From: a virus
Virus record (IMG/VR): IMGVR_UViG_3300044697_000029
Location: 20,250 to 84,249 of that record
Direction: 5' to 3' (one strand)
DNA length: 64,000 nt
Shown here: one piece after another, positions 3,054 to 31,382 of the stretch
How positions within the stretch are numbered: the stretch's first letter is position 1
Layout of the letters: every line of letters starts with the position of its first letter
Program-made: the position numbers and the translations under genes
Notes under the pieces: generated by a model
The model's database searches: none
The model's input: only the letters and a program-made list of their open reading frames with translations
Told to the model about the DNA's origin: nothing

Positions 3054-4100
3054 CTATGCCTCGGTTCGGATGTCGGCGAACAGCCCGGCGTCGCGCCCAA
3101 GGCGGCGTGTTGCCATACCACAGTGACCCGCTCCCAGCTCTATCCCAATAGCGTGCCGCTGCAACCGATCGGCGACTAAGCATGTGGTGAAAACGCCGGC
3201 GAACGGATCGCATACCACGTCTCCCGGTCTTGACCCGGCCCGGATACAAATCTCGGCCACCTGATCCGGCATGACGGCGAAGTGTTCTTCTGCATATTGG
3301 GCGGGGCTGATCCACCACACTGACCTGAGATTGCCGCCCTCCGCAATTTGCTGGTCACGCTCCATCTTGTCCCACCGCTCGTTGAAGCCGGTGTGTCTGC
3401 GCGAATGGCCGCGTTGCTTATCCACTATACGCCGCTTTATGTCTGAGGCATTCTGAACGCCAGCCAGATCATGGCTTTTGGTTGATTGCCCAATGTAGGG
3501 CGACGCGAGTTGCGTCTGCGTAGATGCTTTTGGCGCCGATCGCACGGCTTCGTGATCGTAGTAGTACCGCTCGCTCTTGCTTAACAGAAACACATATTCA
3601 TGCGCGCGGGTAGTCCGATCAGTGCAGCTTTCTGGCATACCGTTAGGTTTGCCCCATACGTTGTCGGCGCGAAGATACCAGCCATCCGCCCGCAGCGCGA
3701 AAGCGACCATCCAGGGAATTCCAACCAGGTCCTTTGGTTTCAGGCCATTCCCAGCCCGCACGTTCGGCGAGTGTCCCGCTTGCTTCCACCCGGCATTCGA
3801 GTGCATGGAACGCGGCGCGTTGTATGTAGAACTGCTCGCGAAGCAGTCTCCCAAGTTGATCCACAGCGTGCCGTCGTCACGCAGGACGCGCCGACATTCG
3901 TGCATCACGCCGACGATTGTCTCAACGTATGCGTCTGGTGTCTCCTCCTGCCCGATTTCGAACGGCTTCAATGGGTCATCAGGCTTCAGGTACGATCGTT
4001 GCCGGAAGTAGGGCGGGGAGGTCACAATGCACTGCACGCTGCCATCCGCCAGTTCCGGCAGCCGCTCGCGGCAATCGCCCTGCATCACGGTGATTGTCAT
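3054..4100 (-). CDS. N4/N6 DNA methyltransferase (beta class)
   Basis: TSPPY catalytic motif near the N-terminus, DPFAG SAM-binding motif near the C-terminus, KPKDLVGIPW and HEYVFLLSK. Confidence 0.92.
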   Translation of the reverse strand: MTITVMQGDCRERLPELADGSVQCIVTSPPYFRQRSYLKPDDPLKPFEIGQEETPDAYVETIVGVMHECRRVLRDDGTLWINLGDCFASSSTYNAPRSMHSNAGWKQAGHSPNVRAGNGLKPKDLVGIPWMVAFALRADGWYLRADNVWGKPNGMPESCTDRTTRAHEYVFLLSKSERYYYDHEAVRSAPKASTQTQLASPYIGQSTKSHDLAGVQNASDIKRRIVDKQRGHSRRHTGFNERWDKMERDQQIAEGGNLRSVWWISPAQYAEEHFAVMPDQVAEICIRAGSRPGDVVCDPFAGVFTTCLVADRLQRHAIGIELGAGHCGMATRRLGRDAGLFADIRTEA

Positions 4101-4252
4101 CGAGACACTGCGTCCGGACTACTGGCCTCGCGCGCATGCCGGCTTGCCCACGTAAGCGCGCAATCCAGGCATAGTTCCGGCAGCCCGTCGATCTGCCGCA
4201 CCGGGAACACCGCCTGCTCTGACGTGGCGCCACAATCCTCGCAGGTCCGCAT
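4097..4252 (-). CDS. 51-aa zinc-finger-like protein (not in ORF track)
   Basis: MRTCEDC...LCLDC; start and stop overlap both neighbours. Confidence 0.6.
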   Translation of the reverse strand: MRTCEDCGATSEQAVFPVRQIDGLPELCLDCALTWASRHAREASSPDAVSR

Positions 4253-5301
4253 CACTTCGCCTCCTCAAACAGCCGCGCCTGCGTTGCGATGGGCGTCGGT
4301 TCGGGGATGAACAGGTCGCGCTGGCGGTGGGCGGCTTCGATGCGGCGGCAGGCTATGTCGAAGTACGGTTCGTGTTTTTCGATGCCGACGAACCGCCGAC
4401 CGAGTTTCAGGCATGCAACGCCGGTGGTTCCAGAACCAAGGAAACCATCCACCACAAGCTGGTTGAGCTTCGTCGAAGTTCCGACGATGTGTTCCATGAC
4501 GGAAAGGGGCTTTTCGCATGGGTGCTTACCGTCATAGCCTTGGATACAATTGTAATCCCATATGTCGCCTCTCATCCTCTCGTCATAAACAGAGAACGGC
4601 CGCCGCAGGTCTTCGTACTCCCGCCGCAGGTCTTCGTACTCCCGCCGCAGGAGAGACGTGTTCGAGCGTTGGAATAACTCCCGACACTTTTGATAGTCAG
4701 TTTGGTTCGGAAGGGATGATCCTTCCTCCCAACGCAGATAAAGAGCGCTGTCGCGGTCAATGTGATCAGCTATTTGGCGATACGAAAGGCCGGCCTCAAT
4801 ACGTTGTGATTTGAAGTAATCACCCAGCGGTCGAAAAACTCGCTTGTGAAGCGCATCGCAAGCTGCGTCGTAACCTAGTGCGTTCATCGCCGAAGCGTCG
4901 TCGCACTTCTGCGCAAATATGCATGCCTCCCAGTTTTGTTGGAACACTCGCATATCATCGGATGCCTGCTTCATATGCCAACCTTGAGGCTTCCTCCAGC
5001 GTATCGAATTGAGAAATACAAAATTCTGCCGCACGAGACGTTGGACCTCCCATTCCATTCTCGCCGACGCAAAGCAATAAAGACTCGCCCAGTCCTCCAT
5101 GATCCCCGAGCATGAAGCAAGGATCGAGCCGAGCCATTCAAGGAACTTCCCCGCATCATCCCATTGACGGTCCCACCATTCGTCCTTCACTCGGAAGTAC
5201 GGAGGGTCCATCACACACGCATCCACGCCGCTCAGAGTCGGCAGAATATCCCTACAATCACCCAACATCAGCGTAGCCGCCCCGATCCGCTCAACGCGCA
5301 T
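4252..5301 (-). CDS. DNA methyltransferase (beta class, DPPY) with inserted XRE-type HTH
   Basis: DPPY, HPCEKP and DGFLGSGTTG motifs; insert FKSQRIEAGLSYRQIA...RWEEGSSLP resembles an XRE HTH. Confidence 0.9.
   Translation of the reverse strand: MRVERIGAATLMLGDCRDILPTLSGVDACVMDPPYFRVKDEWWDRQWDDAGKFLEWLGSILASCSGIMEDWASLYCFASARMEWEVQRLVRQNFVFLNSIRWRKPQGWHMKQASDDMRVFQQNWEACIFAQKCDDASAMNALGYDAACDALHKRVFRPLGDYFKSQRIEAGLSYRQIADHIDRDSALYLRWEEGSSLPNQTDYQKCRELFQRSNTSLLRREYEDLRREYEDLRRPFSVYDERMRGDIWDYNCIQGYDGKHPCEKPLSVMEHIVGTSTKLNQLVVDGFLGSGTTGVACLKLGRRFVGIEKHEPYFDIACRRIEAAHRQRDLFIPEPTPIATQARLFEEAK
4600..4651. repeat. 21-bp tandem repeat (2.5 copies) encoding LRREYED heptads
   Basis: ccgccgcaggtcttcgtactc at 4600-4620 and 4621-4641, partial copy to 4651. 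Confidence 0.9.
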
Positions 5302-6855: not shown

Positions 6856-7061
6856 ACGAACGCCCTCAGCGCCTCGACGATCGCCGCATGCTCGACGGCC
6901 GTCGCCGGAACTTCGTGGAGGATAATGCCGTGCGGCGGTGCATTGGACACCGTTCGGCATTCCAGGATCAACACGCCGCCGCGGTCGATGCGCTCGGCCA
7001 GGTCACGGAACACACTCGGCGGTATGTCGCTCGCCCGCGTGCATGAGGTGAGGTGCAGCAT
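6852..7061 (-). CDS. Small hypothetical protein
   Basis: SD-like AAGGGG upstream; stop overlaps the next ATG. Confidence 0.55.
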   Translation of the reverse strand: MLHLTSCTRASDIPPSVFRDLAERIDRGGVLILECRTVSNAPPHGIILHEVPATAVEHAAIVEALRAFV

Positions 7062-7080
7062 GGTGGTTCCCCCTTGGTTG

Positions 7081-8880
7081 TTACTCGGTCACCCACTCGG
7101 GCATCTGTGGCGTGGCGGGTTCGGCGCCGATAGGTGAACTGTACCGGCCATTGATAGCATCGAAATCCAGCGTCGCCTTCGCGCCGCGCGTTCCGAAGCG
7201 GCGATAGCGAGCTTTCCATAAGTGCAGATCAACGCTGCCGGGTTGTGGCGAATGCACCGTCAATCCCAGGTCCGGTTTGTTAAACCAGTGAGCTGAACCG
7301 CTGATGTCATATGGGCCAGGAAAGGCGCGCGTCTCTCCCGGTTTCAACGGTTGCGGCTTCGCGGGATGGCAGATCATCCATACGTTGCAGCCATGTCGCA
7401 GACCGAACGCTCGAAGCCGTTGTAATGCGCGACCAGTGTAATCAGTCTCGCTCAACGTGCCGCGCTGGTGGTCGATCTCGTTCCACGGGTCGATCACCAG
7501 ATCGGTCGTGCCATCGCGGAGCACCGTGGCAGCCGCACGGTCAAGTATCCAATCCAGCGTCGGCGAATCGTCTTCCGCGTCGCATACCAGCATGGTCACG
7601 CGAGAGGACAACCATTGCTCGGCTTCGACAACTTCCTCGTCCGACATGCTTTCGATAGCGCGGCTCGGCCAGAACGACTTACCCGAATAGACTTCGGCGC
7701 ATTCCGCAACGAATTGCTCCCACGGCTGCATCTCTGGGCTGAAGACGCCCCATTTTCTTCCGCAATCGGATGCCGTGCGCACCATGACAAAGCGCATCCA
7801 GGAAGTTTTCCCAGAGCCAGGATACCCGGTAACGACGACGAGTCGGCCTTCGGTGGGAAGATGGATCACGGCATCAGTTGCCCGAGCGCCAGTCGTCATT
7901 GTTGTCGGCGCAGGCTGCTGGCGCAGCCCCAGAAGCGTGCCGACCTTGATCCGCTGCAGCCCGCTGATCGGATACGGCTGCGCGTCTGCCACAGCCTGGG
8001 TGACGGCCTCGGGACCGTGTACGCGCAGCACGTCGCAGGCATCCTTGCAGCCATCAGGCCATGTCACAAGCCAACAGCGATGCCGTCCGAGCCGACGTGC
8101 CAGTTCCTCCCGCAGCGCCAAGCCTGGTTTGTCAGCATCCCCCGCCAACACGACGCGCTTTGCTTTTCCGAGCAGATCACCATGCGTGCGCAGCGCCTCG
8201 AACCGCTTGTCGTCAGGTCGAAATGTCGCTTCTGACGGCGCGCCGTCTGGCAGTGTGACAGCATGCCGGATGCCGCACTCGAACATTGCCATCACGTCCG
8301 GTTCACCTTCAACCCAAACGATCTCGGCGGGATCGCCGCCAAGCCGATCGACATTGAACAGCGACCGCAGCGCGTCCTTTTCCTGCATCTGCGGGGTTTT
8401 GTCCGGGTGTGGACGGTACTTCCGGTTCACTACCTCTCCGGCCAAAATGTAGGGAAAAACGATCGCCTGTTTTTCCCCAAGCGACTCGAACTGACGGATC
8501 GCTGCATAGCACCCGAATTCGTGGACGGTCCGCGCGCCGATGTGCCGCTCGGCAAAGAATTCGTATAGCCAATCCGGCCGATTGCTGACGATGGCTGGCG
8601 CGTGGGGTTTGGGCTTCTGCACCGCTCGTTCCCGCAGTGGCAGGGCTGCGTAGTCCCTCACGCGCTGTCCCCCAGACCACCCGCAGGAACCGCGGTGACA
8701 GGTCCAAACTGCACCCTGGCCGTCCTGGTCGATCGTGACAGTCAGCGAGATTTCCTTGGTTCGCCCCCCTTCGCATCGCGGACAGATGACTTGGCACGAT
8801 CGGCCCGGCGTGATTGTCTTCGGCCGAATGCGGTGATCGGCGAAGATTGCCATCAGGCTGTCTGGCGCGGACTGGACCAT
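7081..8880 (-). CDS. Twinkle/T7 gp4-like primase-helicase
   Basis: Zn finger (CPRC..CHRGSC), TOPRIM (VEGEPD, AGDAD, CKDACD), Walker A TGYPGSGKT, VIDPWN, YDISGSAHWFNKPD. Confidence 0.93.
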   Translation of the reverse strand: MVQSAPDSLMAIFADHRIRPKTITPGRSCQVICPRCEGGRTKEISLTVTIDQDGQGAVWTCHRGSCGWSGGQRVRDYAALPLRERAVQKPKPHAPAIVSNRPDWLYEFFAERHIGARTVHEFGCYAAIRQFESLGEKQAIVFPYILAGEVVNRKYRPHPDKTPQMQEKDALRSLFNVDRLGGDPAEIVWVEGEPDVMAMFECGIRHAVTLPDGAPSEATFRPDDKRFEALRTHGDLLGKAKRVVLAGDADKPGLALREELARRLGRHRCWLVTWPDGCKDACDVLRVHGPEAVTQAVADAQPYPISGLQRIKVGTLLGLRQQPAPTTMTTGARATDAVIHLPTEGRLVVVTGYPGSGKTSWMRFVMVRTASDCGRKWGVFSPEMQPWEQFVAECAEVYSGKSFWPSRAIESMSDEEVVEAEQWLSSRVTMLVCDAEDDSPTLDWILDRAAATVLRDGTTDLVIDPWNEIDHQRGTLSETDYTGRALQRLRAFGLRHGCNVWMICHPAKPQPLKPGETRAFPGPYDISGSAHWFNKPDLGLTVHSPQPGSVDLHLWKARYRRFGTRGAKATLDFDAINGRYSSPIGAEPATPQMPEWVTE

Positions 8881-20764: not shown

Positions 20765-21202
20765 ATGGCGCGCAACCGCACGACATTTCCACCCGGCAAA
20801 GGAACAGGATGGGGCGGTCCGGCCAGAGGGCCGGGCGCCGGTCCAAAGTTCGAGAAGTTCATGGAAGGCAACCAGACCGAGCATCCCGCGGGCGACGATT
20901 ATCGCGAGCGTCGGCAGAAACGCCGCGAGTTGCGCGCCGCTGGCGCCGAAAGGCTTCAGCAGTTGAAGGACCATCTAGCCGATCTAGCCCTCAATGCCGA
21001 GCATGAAGCCACGCAGGTTAGCGCGACCGTCGCGTGGCTAAATCGGGAAGAGGGGATGCCGGCACAGACGAACAAGAATCTGAATGTCGATGTCATCAGC
21101 GGTCTCCCGCTCGACCAACAGCGAGCTATTGCGGCGGCTCTCGACGCTCTCCCCGACGACGCGGGCGACGATGCGGGAGGCGCTGCGCCGCAGCATCACT
21201 GA
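20765..21202 (+). CDS. Probable terminase small subunit
   Basis: Position before TerL, size, helical profile with LNREEGMPAQ. Confidence 0.55.
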   Translation: MARNRTTFPPGKGTGWGGPARGPGAGPKFEKFMEGNQTEHPAGDDYRERRQKRRELRAAGAERLQQLKDHLADLALNAEHEATQVSATVAWLNREEGMPAQTNKNLNVDVISGLPLDQQRAIAAALDALPDDAGDDAGGAAPQHH

Positions 21203-21890
21203 GGCCGAGCGCGGCCGGTTCATCGACACACTCTATCCCCACACGGGGCCTCTACGCCGCGAACTCTACATCAAGCACCTGGAGTTCTGGCGCGCGGGCG
21301 CGGTGCATGACGAACGGGCGTTCGTTGCAGGGAATCGGACCGGTAAGACCACGTGCGTATCATACGAGGATGTACTGCACCTGACCGGTGATTATCCGGA
21401 GTGGTGGGAAGGCAGGCGCTTCGATCGCCCGATCACATGCTGGGCCTGCGGCACAGATGCCAAGGCAGTGCGCGAAAAGCTGCAGCCTGCATTGATTGGG
21501 CCGGCCGAAGCGCGAGGGACTGGGATCATCCCCCGCGACCGGCTTCTGCGGACCTTCGCACGAAGCGGCACGGCGGACGCAATCGACTTTGCACTCGTTC
21601 GCAACCAGTTCGGCGGATTGTCGCGCCTGGTGTTCAAGGCATACGAACAAGGGCGTGAATCGTTCCAGGCCGCCGAGGTCGATGTCGTCCACCTGGACGA
21701 AGAGCCGCCGATGGCGATCTACACCGAGGCGCTGACCCGCACGCTCTCGACGGTGCCCGGGCGGCGTAACGGTATTCTGGTCTTCAGTTTCACGCCACTC
21801 CAAGGACTGAGCGACGTGGTTCTGCAGTTCCTGCCTGGCGGTGCATACCCCGCAACGGAAGAGGTCCGCAAACAGGCGTGGGGATGGTAA
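21084..21890 (+). CDS. terL: Terminase large subunit, N-terminal ATPase part
   Basis: Walker A AGNRTGKT, Walker B VHLDEEPP, motif III FTPLQG; stops at TAA 21890. Confidence 0.92.
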   Translation: MSMSSAVSRSTNSELLRRLSTLSPTTRATMREALRRSITEAERGRFIDTLYPHTGPLRRELYIKHLEFWRAGAVHDERAFVAGNRTGKTTCVSYEDVLHLTGDYPEWWEGRRFDRPITCWACGTDAKAVREKLQPALIGPAEARGTGIIPRDRLLRTFARSGTADAIDFALVRNQFGGLSRLVFKAYEQGRESFQAAEVDVVHLDEEPPMAIYTEALTRTLSTVPGRRNGILVFSFTPLQGLSDVVLQFLPGGAYPATEEVRKQAWGW

Positions 21891-22395: not shown

Positions 22396-23141
22396 TACAA
22401 GCCGGATGGGCCGACTCACCGCACCTTTCGCCAGACGCCACGGAGGAGCTTGCGCGCTCGTATCCACCGAATGAACGGGACGCCCGCATGCGCGGCATCC
22501 CTTCGCTCGGGGCGGGCGCGATTTACCCCGTGCCGGAAAGCGAAGTCGTCGTGCAGCCGTTCAAAGTGCCGCACTATTGGCCTATCTGCTACGCCCTGGA
22601 TGTCGGCTGGAACCGCACTGCTGCGCTATGGGCCGCTCACGACACAGAGACCGACACAGCCTATCTCGTGAGCGAGCACTATCGAGCGCACGCCGAGCCG
22701 CCGATCCACGCTGAGGCGATCAAGGCGCGTGGCGCGTGGATACCTGGAGTAATCGACCCAGCGGCGCGCGGACGCAGCCAGAAGGACGGCGCCGCCCTGA
22801 TGACGACCTATCAGGAGCTTGGGCTAAGGCTAACCGCCGCGAACAATGCCGTCGAAGCGGGCATTTACGAGGTGTGGACGCGGTTTTCAACGGGACGCCT
22901 GAAGGTCTTCGCGACGCTGCAGAACTTCCTCGCGGAGTATCGTATCTACAGGCGCGATGAAAAAGGCCACATCGTGAAGGACAGCGACCACCTCATGGAC
23001 GATTGTCGCTACATCTGCATGAGCGGCCTTGATATCGCGGCATTCCGACCGCCAGAACTGGTGCGCGGTCTGGTCGGGAAGCCGAAACAGGAATGGTCCC
23101 CCCGCGCCGCACTCGATTCCGATGGATACGGATTGCGATGA
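22380..23141 (+). CDS. terL: Terminase large subunit, C-terminal nuclease part
   Basis: Frame open from 22359: ITRYVVQAGWADSPHL...ERDARMRGIPSLGAGAIYP, ALDVGW, IDPAARGR, DHLMD; GGGAGGT SD 5 nt before ATC 22380. Confidence 0.88.
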   Translation: MTRYVVQAGWADSPHLSPDATEELARSYPPNERDARMRGIPSLGAGAIYPVPESEVVVQPFKVPHYWPICYALDVGWNRTAALWAAHDTETDTAYLVSEHYRAHAEPPIHAEAIKARGAWIPGVIDPAARGRSQKDGAALMTTYQELGLRLTAANNAVEAGIYEVWTRFSTGRLKVFATLQNFLAEYRIYRRDEKGHIVKDSDHLMDDCRYICMSGLDIAAFRPPELVRGLVGKPKQEWSPRAALDSDGYGLR

Positions 23142-23523: not shown

Positions 23524-25365
23524 ATGCCTGAATCTGCTGCCCAACGCCGCTACGCCCGCGGCAACGGTCTCGATCCGGCACAACCGTTCTATTTCCAGTC
23601 ATCCCCAACGATGCTGGGGATGCAGCCGGCAAACGACAGCGCGCCGGCGCCCGTTGCTCCGTCGTGGCTGGGTTGGCCCGACCTCTACCGCCATCTGGAA
23701 GCGCGGCTCGCGGCCGAAAAGACGTGGCGGCTGTCATGGTGGCGGCTGTGGGGAGATATCGCCCGGTTCGAGCTTCCGAGGCGGTACCACGCGTTTTTGA
23801 CGGAGAACGACTACAACAGGGGCACGCGCCGCGACGGTGCCATCCTCGACAACACCGCGACGCAGGATGGTGAGACCTGTGCCGGCGGCATCATGACGGT
23901 CTGCACGGACCCCGATCGGGAGTGGATCAAGCTGGGCGCGCCGGCCGGCGTCGAGGTCGATCGCGACGGGCAGATGTTCTTCGATGACCTGACCGAACGG
24001 CTCCGCTTCGTGCAGGATGAGACCAACTTTTACGAGAGCCTGAACCAGTTCTATGAGGACCTGACGTTCTTCGGAACCGGCGTGGCGATCGACTATGACG
24101 ATGCCGACAACATCTTCGTCTGCCGGAATCCGTGTGCCGGCGAGTTCTGCCTCGCGAGCGGTGCCGGCAACGAGGACCAGTCGCTTTTCGTCGAGGAACG
24201 CCGGACGGTTGCGCAGATCGTTGAGATGTTCGGGCTGGACAACTGCCCGCTCGATATTCGCCAGCAGTTCGTCCAGAAAGGTGGCGCGCTGGAACAGGAG
24301 CGCATCGTCGGACATGCCATCGAGCCGAATTTCGCGCTGTCGGACGGTAACGGTGGGTCCGTTGGCAGGTTGCCGGGCCATTTCACGTGGCGCGAGGTGT
24401 ACTGGATCGTCGGCAAATCCGACACCGCGCCGCTGAGCATCGCGGGCTTTCAGGAGAAGCCCTTTGCTGCCTCGCAGTGGCATCGTGTGTCCAACGACCC
24501 CTACGGCCACGGGCCGGGATCGACGGTGCTTGGCGACACGATCGAACTGCAAATCCTCACGGCGCGGCAGGCCGAACTGGTGGAGAAGATCGGTCGGCCC
24601 CCGATGACGGCGCCGGTCTCGCTCAAGAACGAACCGCACTCGATCAAGCCCGACCAGATCACGTATTACGATGCGACCACTTCCGCGCCGCAGTTCAAGC
24701 CGATATTCGAGGTCGATGCGCGCGCCTTGGTTGGCATCAACGCCTCGATCGCCGCCGTGCAGGAGCGCATCCATCGCGGCATGCACGCCGACCTGTTTCG
24801 GATGATCCAGGAACTGTCACAACGCCCAGGCCAGAAGACGGCAACCGAGATCGACGCGCTTCGGGAAGAACGTCTGATGCAACTCGGGCCGGTGATCGGC
24901 CGCGTCTATCGCTACGGCATCCGCCCACGGATCAACCGGCAACTGGCCATCTTGCGGCGCCGCGGGCTGTGGCCGAAGATTCCGCAATCGATGCGCCGGC
25001 TGCCGTTGCAGATCGAGTTCATCTCGATGCTGACCCTGGCGCAGCGGGCCGGGGCGGTCGGCTCGATCGAACGGACGTTTGCCTTCGCCCAATCGCTGGC
25101 GCCCGATCCGCGGTTCGCTGAGAGCGGCGACGTGCTGGATGCCGACGAAGCCGTGCGAGAAGCGGCATCCTTGCGCGGCGCACCGTCCCGGATTATCAGG
25201 GCGGCGGCGGACGTGCGGAGGATCAGGGCGGCACGCCAGCAGGCCGTGTCGGCGCAGCAGCAGGCACAGACCGCGCAAGCAGCCGTGGCGGGAGCGCAGC
25301 AGTTGTCGCAGACCAGTCTCAATCCGGGGAACGCCCTGGGGGCCATGTTGCAGGGGGCACGGTGA
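23524..25365 (+). CDS. Portal (head-tail connector) protein
   Basis: 613 aa; ETNFY, FFGTG, PYGHGPG, KTATEI..LREERLMQLGPV and IEFISML motifs of T7/BPP-1-type portals. Confidence 0.93.
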   Translation: MPESAAQRRYARGNGLDPAQPFYFQSSPTMLGMQPANDSAPAPVAPSWLGWPDLYRHLEARLAAEKTWRLSWWRLWGDIARFELPRRYHAFLTENDYNRGTRRDGAILDNTATQDGETCAGGIMTVCTDPDREWIKLGAPAGVEVDRDGQMFFDDLTERLRFVQDETNFYESLNQFYEDLTFFGTGVAIDYDDADNIFVCRNPCAGEFCLASGAGNEDQSLFVEERRTVAQIVEMFGLDNCPLDIRQQFVQKGGALEQERIVGHAIEPNFALSDGNGGSVGRLPGHFTWREVYWIVGKSDTAPLSIAGFQEKPFAASQWHRVSNDPYGHGPGSTVLGDTIELQILTARQAELVEKIGRPPMTAPVSLKNEPHSIKPDQITYYDATTSAPQFKPIFEVDARALVGINASIAAVQERIHRGMHADLFRMIQELSQRPGQKTATEIDALREERLMQLGPVIGRVYRYGIRPRINRQLAILRRRGLWPKIPQSMRRLPLQIEFISMLTLAQRAGAVGSIERTFAFAQSLAPDPRFAESGDVLDADEAVREAASLRGAPSRIIRAAADVRRIRAARQQAVSAQQQAQTAQAAVAGAQQLSQTSLNPGNALGAMLQGAR

Positions 25366-25610
25366 TCAAATCCTATCCCGCCCATCCCCAGGTTCTGCAA
25401 CGCGACGCCGGGTCTGAGGCGATGCTGATGTGGCCCAGGAACGCCGAGATTGATCTCGCGCACGTGACGGGCGCCTATCCGGTGCCATACGTGCCGCCGA
25501 TGGTTGATCCGGTGTCTAACGTGGTCGCGGTGCAGCATGGCGGCCAGACGACGGTGATCCACGCCGATTTCGACCAGTTCCAGCGGGATTGGGAGGCAAG
25601 CCGGCGATGA
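25362..25610 (+). CDS. Hypothetical protein
   Basis: GTGA and ATGA coupling on both sides. Confidence 0.65.
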   Translation: MIKSYPAHPQVLQRDAGSEAMLMWPRNAEIDLAHVTGAYPVPYVPPMVDPVSNVVAVQHGGQTTVIHADFDQFQRDWEASRR

Positions 25611-26467
25611 GCCGCGAAAGCAAACAGGACGATCCGTGGGAGCGCCGTGCACTCTACGGGTGCGCCGCCGCTCTTGGTGGCAACGTGCCGCAAGCAATCC
25701 GGGATTTCGCAGGCCATCTTGACCAGGCCGCTGATGTGTTGGCCGATGCGCCCTGGATTGAGGGCAATGCTATGAGCGGCCACATCTTCGAACGATATGG
25801 GGGAGGCGGCGCCCGCAGTAGGCTCGGGGTGGGAAGGAGGCTCGCGCTCTCCGAAATACCGGAATGGATCGTTCGCATGAGCGATGACGCTGCGCAATGC
25901 AGGATGGCCGAGCTCGGGGCCGACCATGAAGCTCTGGGGCAAACTGTTGCCACGGACATTTTCTATGGTAGCCCGCAGGCGGACCCATGCAGTTGCATCG
26001 GGCTATCGGCCTTTTGCGAGTCACCCCAAGGAAACGTGGTTGACGGCGGTGGTGACGGCGGCTCGTCGATCTGGCTGCTCTCATGGCACCAGGAGGAACT
26101 TTATATCGCCTATCCAAAAGGCAGTATGGCTGGCCTCATGCGCCACGATCTCGGTCTTCAAGTGGGAGAGCGGGATGCAACGGGCGCCCGAGAGGTTGTT
26201 TACACAGAAGCGTCGGAAGTTTCGTTGGCGATAATTCCTCAGAGGGCACAAAGCGTAGTGCGTATCGCAAACCTAGCTGGTGTCGTGGGAGCGCGGCTGG
26301 ATCAGTTGATGAGAGCGGCTCTGGGCATGCTCGGCGATACAAAAGGAAGGCCGACATTTTACATGAACCGCACGGTAGCGGCGGCCCGTGGCAGTACAGA
26401 GCCGCTGGATGACTATCCGGTGCGTATCGCCGACGAACTGCGTTTTGATGAGGCGAGGGTTGCCTGA
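25607..26467 (+). CDS. Major-capsid-protein homologue 1 (internally deleted)
   Basis: Aligns by eye to 29654-30709: PWIEGN..GH, QTVATDIFYG, GL, NVVDGGG, SSIWLLSW, YPKGSMAG, VRIANL, FYMNRTV. Confidence 0.85.
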   Translation: MSRESKQDDPWERRALYGCAAALGGNVPQAIRDFAGHLDQAADVLADAPWIEGNAMSGHIFERYGGGGARSRLGVGRRLALSEIPEWIVRMSDDAAQCRMAELGADHEALGQTVATDIFYGSPQADPCSCIGLSAFCESPQGNVVDGGGDGGSSIWLLSWHQEELYIAYPKGSMAGLMRHDLGLQVGERDATGAREVVYTEASEVSLAIIPQRAQSVVRIANLAGVVGARLDQLMRAALGMLGDTKGRPTFYMNRTVAAARGSTEPLDDYPVRIADELRFDEARVA

Positions 26468-26898
26468 TGTCTCGCGAAACCGAGTTCCTCACGCGCCACA
26501 AGGAAGACCTGACGCAAGCCGCCGAGATGTGCCGCACACTTCAGCGCCAGGCCGTCGAGGTCTCGCCGCGGCATCGCACCTACCTGCGGCTTCTGCAGAC
26601 CTGCAAGCGGCTGGAAGGCACCTGCCGTCAGATGGCACATGAGCGCGGCGACGACTTCACGTGGTTGCAGCTTGGGCACCACTATCACGCGGTATCGCGG
26701 AAGGTGACGGCGCTGCGGCACGAGGGGAAATGGCTGCTGTTCGGGAAGTTGGCTGAGGTATTCGAGGCTGGGATGCCGCAGGTCGGGCGGCTGGCCACGA
26801 CTGCGACGGGGCTGACCAGCATGAGCACTTCGCCGCTGCTGATCCTGCCGCCCTACCTGCGTGGCGGCAAAATGGATGGACGGATTATCGTGCCATGA
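26467..26898 (+). CDS. Hypothetical protein
   Basis: Coupled on both sides; lies between the two MCP homologues. Confidence 0.7.
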   Translation: MSRETEFLTRHKEDLTQAAEMCRTLQRQAVEVSPRHRTYLRLLQTCKRLEGTCRQMAHERGDDFTWLQLGHHYHAVSRKVTALRHEGKWLLFGKLAEVFEAGMPQVGRLATTATGLTSMSTSPLLILPPYLRGGKMDGRIIVP

Positions 26899-27584
26899 CC
26901 GCACGATGGCTGAGTGACCCGGGTCGGCCCACTGAACTGGCGTGGTTCTTTGACGCGCCGTGGGAAGCGGCCAACCAGCGGCGCTGGCACAAGTACAATG
27001 TCCTTGCCACATCGTCGCCTATACGGATGATGTCAGGTGTGCTTGCGCTCAGCGCACCAGCAAAAGACGTGCTGCGGCAGGTAATCTACGGCAACCCCGT
27101 CGCTCAGAGCGTCGCGGGTCAGCCGCTGACCGAGATGATGGGCCTCGCGCCTATGTTTGCTAGCCGCGATCCGGGCGACGCCGCCAATGCGGTGAATGTC
27201 CTGGATGCTGGTGGCACGAGCAACCTATGTTCCGCGTGGTTGATCGGGTGGGGACCGCGCACGGTATTCATGGTCTCGCCAGATGGGGATCCACCTTCCC
27301 TCGAAGGCGAATGCGGCATTGCGGTTGCGGACTGGCGCTATGTGGTGCGAATCGCGAACATCGACGCTGTTTCGCCGAACTTCAATGCGCTGGCAATGAT
27401 GGCGATGGCGAGTATCCGTCTGCCGCGCCTGACCTGCGATGAGAACCTGCGGCCAATGTTCTATGTCACAAAGGACGTGGAAAATCGGCTGAAGGACGAT
27501 GTGTCGAAGCACGTTGAGCGGTTCAGTGGCGTCCCTATCCGTGTGATTGATGAACTGCGGAGCGACGAGGCGCGCATCGCTTGA
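26895..27584 (+). CDS. Major-capsid-protein homologue 2 (truncated)
   Basis: IYGN, MGL, AANAVNVLDAGG, SAWLIGWGPR, DWRYVVRIANID, RLP, RPMFY and FSGVPIR..D align to the MCP. Confidence 0.85.
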   Translation: MTARWLSDPGRPTELAWFFDAPWEAANQRRWHKYNVLATSSPIRMMSGVLALSAPAKDVLRQVIYGNPVAQSVAGQPLTEMMGLAPMFASRDPGDAANAVNVLDAGGTSNLCSAWLIGWGPRTVFMVSPDGDPPSLEGECGIAVADWRYVVRIANIDAVSPNFNALAMMAMASIRLPRLTCDENLRPMFYVTKDVENRLKDDVSKHVERFSGVPIRVIDELRSDEARIA

Positions 27585-27940
27585 GTGACTATCCCTACGC
27601 CTCCCGCGTCGCGGCTGCTGATGCCGCTATCGAAGACGTCCTCGATCCAGGTGCGGCTGCCGCTCGCGAGGAACAGAACCGCGAACACGAACGCGCCAGA
27701 CAGCAACGCCGAGCGTTCCTGATGCAGACCATGCAGCATCCCGAAGGCCGGAAGTGGCTCAAGGAGATGCTGGACCGGTTCCACACGTTCGAGGCCCGCA
27801 TGGCATCGGTGAACGGCATGGCGCCCGATCCGATGGGCACAATGCTTCTGGCCGGCGAGCAACGCTGCGGCTGGTGGATTTGGGAGCAGTTGGACGACGC
27901 CGATCCAGTCGTGGCTTCGAGACTGCGGAGGAATGCGTGA
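27581..27940 (+). CDS. Bbp19-like phage protein
   Basis: MQHPEGRKWLKEML...AGEQRCG motif; sits between portal and scaffold. Confidence 0.7.
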   Translation: MSDYPYASRVAAADAAIEDVLDPGAAAAREEQNREHERARQQRRAFLMQTMQHPEGRKWLKEMLDRFHTFEARMASVNGMAPDPMGTMLLAGEQRCGWWIWEQLDDADPVVASRLRRNA

Positions 27941-28173
27941 GAACGATCATCAAGGTGGACGAAGGCTGCCTCAACGGGCTGCTGACGACGCGGTTCATCG
28001 TGTTGGATCACGACTGCTGGTCGTTCGGCGAGCGTGTCAGTCAGGTCGATGCGGCGCTCGCCTCCATTCGGGACAGCGAAGACGCGGAGTGCCTGCGGGT
28101 GTTCGGCCAGGAGTTCTGCCCTGCTGTCGTGCCAGATGAATGTGAGACTCTGGTCGCGGCGAAGATCAGATAG
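27937..28173 (+). CDS. Small hypothetical protein
   Basis: GTGA overlap and GGAGG SD. Confidence 0.45.
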   Translation: MRTIIKVDEGCLNGLLTTRFIVLDHDCWSFGERVSQVDAALASIRDSEDAECLRVFGQEFCPAVVPDECETLVAAKIR

Positions 28174-28360
28174 GGCGCGCGGTCCCCGGCAACTCCATCG
28201 TAGGGAACGGCACTCCGGCTGGAGTGCAGAAATACCATCCTGCCGCTTCAACCGAGTAGCGGAACGCCGCATCCTCGGATTCCCGTTCGCGCCGATCCGC
28301 TTCGACCATCGCTTGACCGGTGTAGGTGCGCTCGCTCATGATTTGCTCTCCCTGCGGCAC
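28166..28360 (-). CDS. Small antisense hypothetical protein
   Basis: GGGAG SD before ATG near 28339. Confidence 0.4.
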   Translation of the reverse strand: MPQGEQIMSERTYTGQAMVEADRRERESEDAAFRYSVEAAGWYFCTPAGVPFPTMELPGTARPI

Positions 28361-28376
28361 TAGGGAAGTTCAAGCG

Positions 28377-28787
28377 TCATGCCACGCTCCGCGTTTGACG
28401 CGATGCGGGTCGGTAGGTCGTCATCTGTAACCGGCGTCGCTCATGATCGCCCCCTTCCCTCAGCGGCAACGCGGACCGTTCAGCGGGCGCTACGCCATCC
28501 ATGATGTTGCGCGGCAGCACAGTCCGCACCGACACGACCGCTCCGTTGCTGTTTCGGTCGTCTAACGAGATGTGCGGTGCGTAAACCGCCAGCGGGGCGG
28601 TCTGACGTTCTGTCGCGACTGCGTTCCGCGGCACGAATTGCATCTCATGGAATGCCCCATCGTCACCACGCTCGAAGACGCCTTCGCTTGTGGCGACGAA
28701 CAGCCGGTCCTTGAACACGACCATTGAGATGATCGGCACTTTGCTCGTCGCGACCAGTTCCATGTTGCGGGGCGGCTCTGCGTCCAT
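28377..28787 (-). CDS. Antisense hypothetical protein
   Basis: AAGGTG SD; IISMVVFKDRLFVATSEGVF looks like one beta-propeller blade. Confidence 0.45.
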   Translation of the reverse strand: MDAEPPRNMELVATSKVPIISMVVFKDRLFVATSEGVFERGDDGAFHEMQFVPRNAVATERQTAPLAVYAPHISLDDRNSNGAVVSVRTVLPRNIMDGVAPAERSALPLREGGDHERRRLQMTTYRPASRQTRSVA

Positions 28788-28806
28788 GTCCACACCTTGA
28801 GGTTTC

Positions 28807-29637
28807 ATGTCCGACAGTTCTACCGCAGCAGAAACGCCCGCGCCAGCGTCGGAACCGGCTCCCGCAGCCGCTGCACCGGCGCCCGAGCCTGTCGCTGCGC
28901 CGGCCACCGAGGTAACGCCCGCAGCCACCCCAGAGCCGGTCGCCGAACCGGCAGCCCCATCCCCCGAGCCGGAGCCGGCCGCAGCCGCAGGAGAGCCTGC
29001 GCCCGCCACGGTCCAGGATCCGGCCGCAGCCGAACTGGAGAAGGCGCCGGAGGCTGCCGAACCGGTCGCAGAGCCGCCGAAGCCGGAACCGCCGACCTAC
29101 ACCGATTTCAAGTTCCCGGACGGTGTGAAGGTCGCCCCCGAAGCTATGACCGCCGCAACCAAGGTGTTCGGCGAGTTCGGCCTAACCCAGGAGCAGGCGC
29201 AAAGGCTGATCGACATTCATGCCGAACAGCAGCAAGCGGCGGTTAAGCAGTTCACCACTGCGGCCACGGACTACTGGAACGCCGAGTCCAGGAAATGGGT
29301 TGCCGAGGTCGAGAAGACATTCGGCAACCAGCTCAACACCAACATAGAGCGTGCCCGCGCGGTTTGGTCCGACGTGCTGCCCAAGCAAGCCGATCGTGAC
29401 CGTCTGTTCGGCGCGCTGAACGACACCAAGATCGGCGACCACCCCATGCTGGCCCGCGCGCTGGCGGAGGTCGGCCGCCGCTTCGAGCAAATCTACCAGT
29501 TGACCGGAACCAATAGCTGGGATGCCGCGATGAGACGGCTGCGTGAACCGGCCGCGCCGCCACCTGCCCAACCTGCCCGTGCGCCTGGTGCCGCCGGGCG
29601 ACCTGCCGACCGCCGTTACAGCGGCACCCGAGCATAG
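28807..29637 (+). CDS. Capsid scaffolding protein
   Basis: Pro/Ala/Glu-rich N-terminus, YTDFKFPDG, GLTQEQAQRL, GDHP; directly before the MCP. Confidence 0.85.
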   Translation: MSDSSTAAETPAPASEPAPAAAAPAPEPVAAPATEVTPAATPEPVAEPAAPSPEPEPAAAAGEPAPATVQDPAAAELEKAPEAAEPVAEPPKPEPPTYTDFKFPDGVKVAPEAMTAATKVFGEFGLTQEQAQRLIDIHAEQQQAAVKQFTTAATDYWNAESRKWVAEVEKTFGNQLNTNIERARAVWSDVLPKQADRDRLFGALNDTKIGDHPMLARALAEVGRRFEQIYQLTGTNSWDAAMRRLREPAAPPPAQPARAPGAAGRPADRRYSGTRA

Positions 29638-29653: not shown

Positions 29654-30709
29654 ATGGCCACCGGCCAATACCTGACGCTTGTCGATCTCGCGCGGCGCAC
29701 CGACCCTGACGGTGAGGCGGCGGACATTGCCGAACTGCTTTCCCAGGCCAACGAGATTTACGATGATCTCGTCTGGAAAGAAGGCAACACCAACACCGGG
29801 CACGTCTATACGATGCGGACCTCCATCCCGAAGGGCTGGTGGCGCTTCATCGGCCAGGGTGTGCCGGGCAGCAAGTCCACCACGGCGCAGGGTCGCACCA
29901 ACTGCGGCGACCTGGAAATGAACTCGACCATTGATCTCAAGCTGGTCGAAATGGCGCCGGATCAAAACCAGTTCCGCTACGATGAAGACAACGCCATCCT
30001 GGAAGGCGCCAGCCAGACTGTGGCTGGCCAGTTCTTCTATGGTAACGGCCAGACCAACCCAGCATCGTTCACCGGCCTCTCGAACTACTACAACACGCTG
30101 GAAACCTCGACGGCCGCGAACGCAGTCAACGTGTTCGACGGCGGCGGACGGTCCACTAACAATTCGTCGATCTGGCTGATTGGTTGGTCGCCGCGCTCGA
30201 TCTATGGCGTCTTCCCGCGCGGCATGAAAGCCGGCGTTGAGCTGCAGCCGCTCGATGAAGTTGTGCTGGCCTACGACAGCCTGGGCAATCCGTACCGCGC
30301 CAAGATCACATGGTTCCGGCAGATGGCTGGGCTGTGCGTCGAAGACTGGCGCTGGGGCGTCCGCATCGCCAACCTGGACGTGACCAACGCAGCGGCTGGC
30401 GGTCTGGCTGGCCCGAATGCGTATGACATCTTCGTCGGGCTGTCCAAGGCGGTGAAGCGCTTGCCGAAGATGGCGCGCGGGCAAAGCGGCATCACCGAGA
30501 CCGACGCTCGCAATGAGCGCGGGATGACGGTACGGCCGGCCATCTACTTCAACCGCACTGTCGGCGGCTTTGCTGATGTGCAAGCGATACGTGACCGCAA
30601 CGTGTTGCTCGGCCCGAGGGACTACGCTGGCGAGCCGGTCACGTCGTTCCGCGGCATTCCGATGCGCACGCAAGACCAGATTCTGTCCACCGAAACGCAG
30701 GTCACCTGA
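29654..30709 (+). CDS. Major capsid protein (BPP-1 Bbp17-like, HK97 fold)
   Basis: LTLVDLARR, IAELLSQANEI, FYGN, SIWLIGW, DWRWGVRIANLD, FRGIP; strong AAGGAG SD and biased codons. Confidence 0.95.
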   Translation: MATGQYLTLVDLARRTDPDGEAADIAELLSQANEIYDDLVWKEGNTNTGHVYTMRTSIPKGWWRFIGQGVPGSKSTTAQGRTNCGDLEMNSTIDLKLVEMAPDQNQFRYDEDNAILEGASQTVAGQFFYGNGQTNPASFTGLSNYYNTLETSTAANAVNVFDGGGRSTNNSSIWLIGWSPRSIYGVFPRGMKAGVELQPLDEVVLAYDSLGNPYRAKITWFRQMAGLCVEDWRWGVRIANLDVTNAAAGGLAGPNAYDIFVGLSKAVKRLPKMARGQSGITETDARNERGMTVRPAIYFNRTVGGFADVQAIRDRNVLLGPRDYAGEPVTSFRGIPMRTQDQILSTETQVT

Positions 30710-30848: not shown

Positions 30849-31382
30849 GTGGCGATCAATGACGCACAGCTCATCTTTGACAGCAACGTCTCCCTCGCCA
30901 TCGCGGCGCCGGGGCAGCCGTCCTCGGAGACCATCGACCTGATGGGAGTCGGGGTCGGGCAGGCGCCCCCGAACTACTTTGGCGTGCAGGATGCGGTGTT
31001 CGGGGAAGACCCCGGCATCGGCGACGGGGCAAGCCCGCCGGTTCTGCAAGTCATCGTCGGCACGGCGTTCGTTGCCGTGGCAGGCGCCACGCTCCGGGTG
31101 CAGTTCCAGGAATCGGTGGACAGCGGCGCCCCTGGGTACACGCCTGCCGCCTGGAAGACCGTGCTGCAGACCGATGATCTGCCGGCGTCGGTTCTGACGG
31201 CGGGCGCCAAGATCGCCGAGATGGCCATCCCGCCGCGGTATCCCGGCGCTGCGTTCCCCCGCTATCTGCGGCTGAACTACCTTTTGAATGTCGGTGGTTC
31301 GAGCTTCAGCGCGGGCACGATCGCGATCGCGAACATCGTCACGGGCCGCGACGACACCCCTGCGTATCCCGCCGGTTACTGA
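30849..31382 (+). CDS. Bbp16-like capsid cement protein
   Basis: IND.QLIF, SETIDL and RYLRLNY motifs; follows the MCP. Confidence 0.85.
   Translation: MAINDAQLIFDSNVSLAIAAPGQPSSETIDLMGVGVGQAPPNYFGVQDAVFGEDPGIGDGASPPVLQVIVGTAFVAVAGATLRVQFQESVDSGAPGYTPAAWKTVLQTDDLPASVLTAGAKIAEMAIPPRYPGAAFPRYLRLNYLLNVGGSSFSAGTIAIANIVTGRDDTPAYPAGY

Follow-up and report, generated by a model that had tools for sequence, protein, structure and literature searches.

Why would a phage with a complete major capsid protein (MCP) gene also encode two shortened relatives of that protein next to its portal gene? The question is raised by an uncultured phage known from the IMG/VR virus record IMGVR_UViG_3300044697_000029 (G000), which is 84,249 bp long, is classed as linear, has a CheckV completeness of 100% and has no detected terminal repeat. 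The window analyzed here is the 64,000-nucleotide stretch comprising bases 20250–84249 of that record. The two genes, hom1 (25607..26467, plus strand; 286 amino acids) and hom2 (26895..27584, plus strand; 229 amino acids), lie in the head-morphogenesis block of a long plus-strand late operon, and the gene for the resident full-length MCP (29654..30709, plus strand; 351 amino acids) is located ~2 kb downstream of hom2. We conclude that hom1 and hom2 are very probably real, conserved and horizontally acquired reduced MCP derivatives, which would be unable to build a shell. As to their role, we tentatively favor an effect on capsid assembly, either interference or modulation, that would in principle resemble the action of the satellite protein Ccm.

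hom1 and hom2 Encode Homologs of the Full-Length MCP

Are the two open reading frames (ORFs) truly related to the MCP? An earlier note, made from the sequence alone, had described both as intact frames that align to the resident MCP and are translationally coupled to their neighbors. Frames, coordinates and homology were borne out: the frames are open, every junction from portal to orf78 is an exact start/stop overlap, and BLASTP aligns both proteins to the resident MCP (hom1, 29% identity, E 2e-22; hom2, 26% identity, E 2e-20) and to each other (27% identity, E 6e-10). All three proteins match PF20911, the family of BPP-1/epsilon15-type MCPs (GP7/Bbp17), giving three PF20911 genes in one record. 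The resident MCP, which also matches the PDB sequences 3j4u, 8cjz and 3j40 and is 91% identical to its counterpart in one related locus (L005), scores 317 bits over profile positions 1–313 (E 1e-94). The scores of hom1 (112.3 bits, E 2.7e-32) and hom2 (92.3 bits, E 3.5e-26) are well above the gathering score of 27 bits, and the matches were recovered on the raw genome as well. For hom1, an alternative TTG start lies at 25589.

Structural comparison, which the earlier note had proposed as a check, gave the same answer. AlphaFold2 models, made from input alignments that contained full-length MCPs, reached a predicted local distance difference test score (pLDDT) of 92.4 and a predicted template modeling score (pTM) of 0.90 for hom1, and 86.7 and 0.87 for hom2. 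The top Foldseek match of both models is the BPP-1 MCP (3j4u; E 7e-20 for hom1 and 5e-14 for hom2; template modeling score by query 0.71–0.74), followed by the MCPs of Carin1 (8cjz) and epsilon15 (3j40). The BPP topology, made up of N-element, beta-element and alpha-element, is present, as hom1 and hom2 are colinear with Bbp17 over all three. A search of the ESM Atlas returned no usable match, and the Atlas's own model of hom2 is poor. Neither protein has the features of a shell-forming MCP, in that the Johnson fold is incomplete and neither gene is the principal MCP gene of the genome. We also considered whether hom1 and hom2 are the two halves of a split MCP gene, and rejected this, as their profile ranges overlap (73–268 versus 91–175 plus 206–312) and each has its own family C terminus.

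Elements Lost and Elements Retained

Which parts of the capsid protein are missing? Element boundaries for Bbp17 were taken from the BPP-1 structure (PMC3863775) and applied to the alignment of hom1, hom2 and the related reduced proteins described below, which we call mini-MCPs. In hom1, 17 of the 20 E-loop positions (Bbp17 61–80) are gone and RYGGGGA stands in their place. The earlier note had reported a Gly-rich turn replacing ~30 residues after PWIEGN..GH; the replacement of the E-loop holds, but the loss is shorter, ~18–20 residues. The C-proximal loop (Bbp17 293–309) is absent from hom1, with ~32 residues lost there. The spine helix and P-domain hairpin are kept, the NAVNV segment is missing, and the DWRY motif is without D231 and R233.

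The reduction of hom2 goes further. That it lacks much of its N-terminal part and a segment after WGPRTVFMVSPDGDPPS had been seen before, and the mapping agrees: most of the N-peptide is gone (11 of 30 positions kept), 48 of 73 beta-element positions remain, ~25–30 residues are missing after WGPRTVFMVSPDGDPPS, and the P-domain hairpin is lost. The E-loop is also absent, together with the ~27 residues that follow it, which form the first half of the spine-helix region; the modeled spine helix is 7 residues long. Another ~14–20 residues are lost at the C-proximal loop, accounting for most of it. What is left of hom2 is essentially the A-domain core, a five-stranded sheet with two helices. The loss of the C-proximal loop in both proteins was not part of the earlier description.

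The loss of these two loops extends to all mini-MCPs, which retain 0–3 of 20 E-loop positions and either 0–1 (hom1 type) or 5–11 (hom2 type) of 17 C-proximal loop positions. Proteins of the hom2 type resemble hom2 in also missing most of the N-peptide, ~27 residues ahead of the spine helix and ~25 beta-element residues. Of 42 columns with a conservation of 85% or more across 256 full-length MCPs, the mini-MCPs keep 17–27, among them YG, GGSWW, DRRN, Y and PDE. Compared with the Bbp17/gp7 MCPs (PF20911; BPP-1, 3J4U; epsilon15, 3J40; Carin1, 8CJZ), with which they share sequence and structural homology, the hom1/hom2 group preserves the core motifs YG, GGSWW, DWRYVVRIAN and the C-terminal P.R..D..E, but its members are shorter, lack E-loop and channel loop, form a separate clade and, in this phage, are additional to a complete MCP. 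The suggestion that the motifs of both proteins lie nearer to the general Bbp17-family pattern is clearly right only for hom2, in which DWRYVVRIANID is identical to the family consensus; hom1 has lost the D and the R of the motif.

In BPP-1, E-loop and P-domain together form non-covalent chainmail rings, and the E-loop touches the cement protein; the N-terminal peptide augments the cement protein sheet, and strands of the beta-element contact this protein as well (PMC3863775). The C-proximal loop is ordered in hexons and disordered in pentons, possibly because of steric hindrance at the channel (PMC3863775). The A-domain in HK97-fold capsids, as described for the capsid protein and Ccm, is a wedge packed around the capsomer axis (PMC8569155). 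From these structures we infer that the C-proximal loop lost by the mini-MCPs corresponds to the loop lining the capsomer channel, and that the parts missing from hom1 and hom2 would be lattice contacts, with the A-domain core and most of its invariant residues kept.

The Mini-MCPs Form a Rare but Conserved Family

Are proteins of this shape found elsewhere? The mini-MCP clade has at least 17 members of 213–286 amino acids (versus 320–355 for full-length MCPs), all on one side of a branch with SH-like approximate likelihood ratio test (SH-aLRT) support of 100, or 97 in a second tree. All come from metagenome assemblies (Logan, ENA, JGI and one NCBI contig), mostly on contigs of 1–7 kb, with one of 53 kb and one of 20 kb. 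Eight colinear relatives of hom2 (P0006–P0013) have 213–242 amino acids and 38–63% identity to it, and in an alignment of eight hom2-type sequences 39 columns are invariant. Searching a large protein collection exhaustively with HMMER, first with hom1 and then with a profile, yielded hom1-type relatives (P0135 and P0137, each of 284 amino acids and aligned with hom1 end to end, and P0285) as well as intermediates between the types (P0158, P0279); P0304, P0305 and P0309 are further members of the hom2 type. In the tree, hom2 is nested with P0006–P0009, and hom1 is basal on a long branch. Three indels are common to all 17 proteins irrespective of any tree: loss of the E-loop, loss of the C-proximal loop, and a gap of 1–3 residues in the GGTG turn. 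When metagenomes, genomes and viral contigs were scanned with family alignments, all matches were full-length MCPs with no more than 38% identity. These comparisons show, at the level of sequence, a clade that is rare but conserved and distinct from all full-length MCPs sampled.

Conservation of this kind bears on whether the genes, hom1 above all, are non-functional relics, left behind when phages recombined, whose frames merely happen to have remained open at a high GC content. We regard this as improbable. Across eight sequences at 40–63% identity, the hom2 type keeps its length, deletions and invariant columns, which decaying genes would not; both frames are unbroken, and proteins reduced in the same way exist at 31–63% identity. 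A stop-free run at this composition has a chance of ~8e-5 over 286 codons and ~5e-4 over 229; long spurious ORFs are, on the other side, common in the window. The exact overlap of start and stop codons at every junction and the confident structure models, though made from alignments with full-length MCPs, also argue against relics. For hom1 the case is less clear-cut. P0135 and P0137 follow it over its full length, but its type is very rare (3–4 clusters, with no contig longer than 3.4 kb), and its branch is the longest, its GC content at third codon positions (GC3) is 0.62, and D231, R233 and the NAVNV segment are lost. Neutral decay, which the earlier note had named as the finding that would speak against its proposal, is thus not seen for hom2, with at least 10 colinear relatives at 38–63% identity that share its deletions, and hom1 does show some signs of relaxed constraint.

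Outside Origin and Absence from Close Relatives

Where did hom1 and hom2 come from? The earlier note had suspected an outside origin, and the evidence supports it. The genes for hom1, hom2 and the MCP have no meaningful DNA similarity, with only 15–37 nt blastn matches at conserved motifs, and GC3 is lower in hom1 (0.62) and hom2 (0.70) than in the portal, orf143 and MCP genes (0.80–0.81; orf143, 0.81). Phylogeny of the three proteins was carried out as two maximum-likelihood trees, both quick IQ-TREE runs under LG+C20. The resident MCP groups with those of its IMG/VR relatives, and hom1 and hom2 lie across a long branch (~0.6–0.9; SH-aLRT 97 and 100).

Three other derivations were considered and rejected. 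A recent tandem duplication of the resident MCP gene is ruled out by the 26–29% identity, the lack of DNA similarity and the separate clade. That hom1 and hom2 arose as duplicates of each other is at odds with the identity of hom2 to P0006 (63%) versus ~27–31% to hom1; the long hom1 branch leaves a sister relationship of the two not formally rejected by the approximately unbiased test (p = 0.073). Finally, the two genes offer no usable DNA identity for silent cassettes that would serve gene conversion of the MCP gene.

The gene order of relatives shows how the locus was built. Across ~25 related IMG/VR loci, in which the MCP is 50–91% and the portal up to 79% identical, the order is portal, orf143, orf119, scaffold, MCP and cement. 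The portal gene (23524..25365, plus strand; 613 amino acids; PF12236, E 6.6e-87), with 42–79% identity in related loci, is the conserved anchor upstream of the insertions. In relatives it is followed by orf143 (26467..26898, plus strand), a conserved head-module gene in the position of bbp20, with 31–67% identity in ~20 related loci, where it always sits between portal and orf119, and by orf119 (27581..27940, plus strand), which occupies the position of bbp19, is 35–66% identical in related loci and has a weak phrog_528 match; neither has an assigned function. The scaffolding protein gene (28807..29637, plus strand; 276 amino acids) matches phrog_458 (E 1e-22), whose label "protease" is shared by bbp18, and like the gene for the Bbp16-like cement protein (30849..31382, plus strand; 177 amino acids; PF21190, E 2.5e-6), it is conserved in relatives. 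The gene order in BPP-1 matches: portal, two small genes, scaffold, MCP and cement.

None of these relatives has a mini-MCP. In the ~25 related loci, hom1 and hom2 match only the MCP gene itself. Whole-record searches of five relatives, of which two (63.1 and 63.9 kb) have direct terminal repeats and are complete, gave one full MCP apiece and no mini-MCP, and 99 GenBank phages with this MCP type each have a single MCP place and no mini-MCP. In 340 retrieved loci that have an MCP of this type (4.8 Mb in total), no mini-MCP was found, and a second MCP-like piece occurs in only two. Given the gene order in relatives, the arrangement in this phage results from two separate insertions that flank the conserved orf143, one of orf82 plus hom1 and the other of hom2. 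Both the two insertions and the wider family of reduced MCPs go beyond what had been seen before. The small gene orf82 (25362..25610, plus strand), which is unique to this phage, probably was inserted together with hom1; it has no Pfam, PHROG or PADLOC match and no tblastn match in any related locus. Since the portal–scaffold interval of relatives holds varied, unrelated ORFs, it is a hot spot for accessory genes.

Probable Late Expression with the Head Genes

If hom1 and hom2 are expressed, when would this be? Start and stop codons overlap at portal/orf82 (GTGA), orf82/hom1 (ATGA), hom1/orf143 (TGATG), orf143/hom2 (ATGA), hom2/orf119 (TTGA) and orf119/orf78 (GTGA), and a scan for promoters and terminators found no site above shuffle expectation and hence none belonging to hom1 or hom2. 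From the overlaps with head genes and the lack of a promoter or terminator signal of their own, hom1 and hom2 would be expressed late, during capsid assembly. A peat metatranscriptome library contains identical contigs over hom1, orf143/hom2, hom2/orf119 and the MCP gene, which is a weak hint at most, as DNA carry-over is possible.

Possible Roles in Capsid Assembly

If the mini-MCPs cannot build a shell, what might they do? The earlier note had put forward special-vertex proteins, dominant-negative poisons of competitor capsids and decoys for capsid-sensing host defenses. One possibility, which we favor tentatively, is that they interfere with or modulate the assembly of capsids, most likely the BPP-1-type capsids of co-infecting rivals or parasites. 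Made late, alongside the head genes and while capsids assemble, hom1 and hom2 might still make intra-capsomer contacts with MCPs of the PF20911 family through the retained A-domain core. Loss of the E-loop would remove half of the non-covalent chainmail ring, and the channel-lining loop would be gone too; hom2 would additionally be without the N-peptide and beta-element strands that bind cement and without most of the P-domain. Subunits of this kind could enter or cap capsomers, where they would be neither chain-mailed nor cemented and would be unable to build a shell. The patchy distribution, hot-spot location, lower GC3 and long branches resemble those of conflict genes more than those of core structural genes, and it is for this resemblance that we favor interference.

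The nearest precedent is Ccm of SaPIbov5. This satellite-encoded homolog of the phi12 capsid protein takes up the penton positions, redirecting the shape of the capsid, and has an N-arm, E-loop, P-domain and A-domain (PMC8569155). Like hom1 and hom2, it is an extra, diverged MCP homolog that forms no capsid alone. Ccm acts at the capsomer level on the capsid assembly of another protein, as hom1 and hom2 may do. It differs in having the full HK97 fold and topology and in being encoded by a satellite and directed against its helper, whereas hom1 and hom2 are strongly reduced and lie in the phage's own late operon.

It is also possible, though we think it rather unlikely, that hom1 and hom2 are minor subunits of the phage's own head, either penton or special-vertex specialists or modifiers of geometry that may allow a larger or prolate capsid for 84 kb of DNA. 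The vertex protein gp24 of T4 is a parallel: a second MCP paralog encoded beside the MCP in the head-gene cluster, near full-length relative to gp23, essential and vertically conserved in T4-like phages. The known MCP paralogs gp24 and Ccm are both found in pentons. Such a role would suit genes that lie inside the head block and overlap the start and stop codons of portal, orf143 and orf119, and the deletion shared by both proteins hits the loop that is disordered in BPP-1 pentons (PMC3863775). The best structural match of hom1 is a penton chain, 3j4u_G, which is partly just because the loop is unresolved there, and hom1 keeps the P-domain that would receive the E-loops of its neighbors.

Against this, relatives with 79–91% identical MCPs make heads without hom1 and hom2, whose distribution is patchy and non-vertical and includes no isolated phage with this MCP type. 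A vertex lacking E-loops, and in the case of hom2 also N-peptide and P-domain, would be neither chain-mailed nor cemented, and the two proteins have just 26–29% identity to the MCP that they would have to fit. As do vertex paralogs, they occur in addition to a full MCP, but they do not keep the whole HK97 fold, as both lack the E-loop and hom2 lacks most of the P-domain; in contrast to gp24, they are reduced, patchy and missing from close relatives.

Genome size is a further point in this comparison. The record has 84,249 bp, versus 63,067 bp (G001; MCP 87% identical) and 63,944 bp (G003; MCP 71% identical) in the two relatives whose genomes are complete, with terminal repeats. Compared with that of G001, the late module is colinear but longer (38 kb versus 29 kb), and the first 40 kb share little with G001. 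The link between genome size and the mini-MCPs comes, however, from one record that has no end repeats. If the mini-MCPs did reset capsid geometry, this could explain why ~84 kb are packaged here versus ~63 kb in relatives with 71–87% identical MCPs.

Several defense systems are reportedly triggered by the MCP or escaped through MCP mutations. Might hom1 and hom2 then be soluble, assembly-incompetent MCP mimics that act as decoys or sponges for host defense sensors, or for satellite proteins, that recognize HK97-fold capsid proteins? Conserved core surfaces are kept and every lattice-forming element is lost, as might be expected of such a mimic, and the pattern of accessory, horizontally moved and fast-evolving genes is typical of conflict genes. 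We nevertheless consider a decoy quite improbable: binding of the MCP normally activates sensors, and a mimic would more likely trigger than block them, and late expression may come too late to pre-empt a sensor. The proteins have no similarity to any PADLOC family, and literature searches turned up no known MCP-derived decoy.

Interference with capsid assembly is itself challenged on several counts. Lying in the late operon with no separate promoter is just as compatible with a role in the virion or in assembly of this phage's head, and it implies that hom1 and hom2 would be produced together with the resident MCP, which must then be spared. The mini-MCP clade may be inflated by long-branch attraction, as the trees are quick and supported by SH-aLRT only. 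The hom1 branch is very long (1.4–2.1) and hom1 has the lowest GC3, and every other mini-MCP keeps the DWRY residues that hom1 lost; hom1 may be decaying. At 63% GC, and with many long spurious ORFs in the window, an open frame is weak evidence. Across hom1 and hom2, the public copies of this phage are too alike for a ratio of nonsynonymous to synonymous substitution rates: contigs from four runs agree in every letter, and cluster members differ by single residues.

A broader proposal, which we put forward with considerable doubt, is that phages carry in the mini-MCPs a class of capsid-assembly effectors not described before, in which an HK97-fold capsomer core of BPP topology would poison or cap the capsomers of rival phages or parasites with BPP-1-type capsids, or else reset capsid geometry. 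To our knowledge, extra MCP homologs occur in few systems only (T4 gp24, Ccm), in which the fold is complete. The mini-MCP lineage is conserved and keeps the capsomer core, yet has dropped precisely those elements by which capsomers are locked into a shell, and it is carried as an accessory in the late operon of a phage. If interference or re-shaping is correct, the mini-MCPs would represent a weapon between viruses, or a determinant of capsid size, of a new kind. They would also be a naturally minimal form of the HK97 fold that binds capsomers, of use in studying and engineering capsid assembly. Even if inert, they document that genes are gained at a hot spot between portal and scaffold in widespread, uncultured, podophage-like viruses of 60–85 kb.

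Other Genes of the Locus and Distribution of the Phage

Downstream of hom2, three more ORFs are unique to this phage. The small, Cys-rich orf78 (27937..28173, plus strand; 78 amino acids) overlaps the end of orf119. It is followed, before the scaffold gene, by two ORFs on the reverse strand, one of 57 amino acids (28166–28339) and one of 143 (28377–28808). None of the three has a match in relatives or in a Pfam or PADLOC family. A reverse-strand cassette (28166..28808) within a late operon is an unusual arrangement. The large terminase appears to be encoded by two ORFs (21084–21890 and 22488–23141) that are ~600 bp apart.

In six related loci (L013, L016, L018, L021, L023 and L025), other cargo occupies the portal/orf143, orf143/orf119 or orf119/scaffold junctions. 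Judged by eye, hot-spot cargo includes KTSC-like small proteins, an HNH-like protein, a DHH-like protein of 297 amino acids and a protein of 851 amino acids. A different kind of MCP-derived fragment is present in the same hot spot of a 64.6-kb relative (L030; IMGVR_UViG_3300022173_000064), where an ORF of 96 amino acids (7058–7348, minus strand) lies between portal and MCP. Its N terminus resembles a twin-arginine signal (SRRGFITGLISLVAAPA), and the remainder resembles the MCP C terminus (41% identity to residues 271–343; PF20911 positions 253–305, E 1.8e-6). In another locus (L152; RGPT01000131.1), from an alphaproteobacterial metagenome-assembled genome, the MCP gene is split into pieces at 3948–4724 and 8182–8433, with residues 82–325 on one strand and residues 1–83 on the opposite strand 3.5 kb away, the result of either an inversion or an assembly artifact.

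DNA nearly identical to that of this phage (0.84–1.00 of sampled words shared) occurs in runs from at least 8 of 13 listed studies, dating from 2017 to 2025. These runs are labeled as freshwater, lake, peat and marine metagenomes, and the phage is either cosmopolitan or tied to a ubiquitous, possibly contaminant, bacterium.

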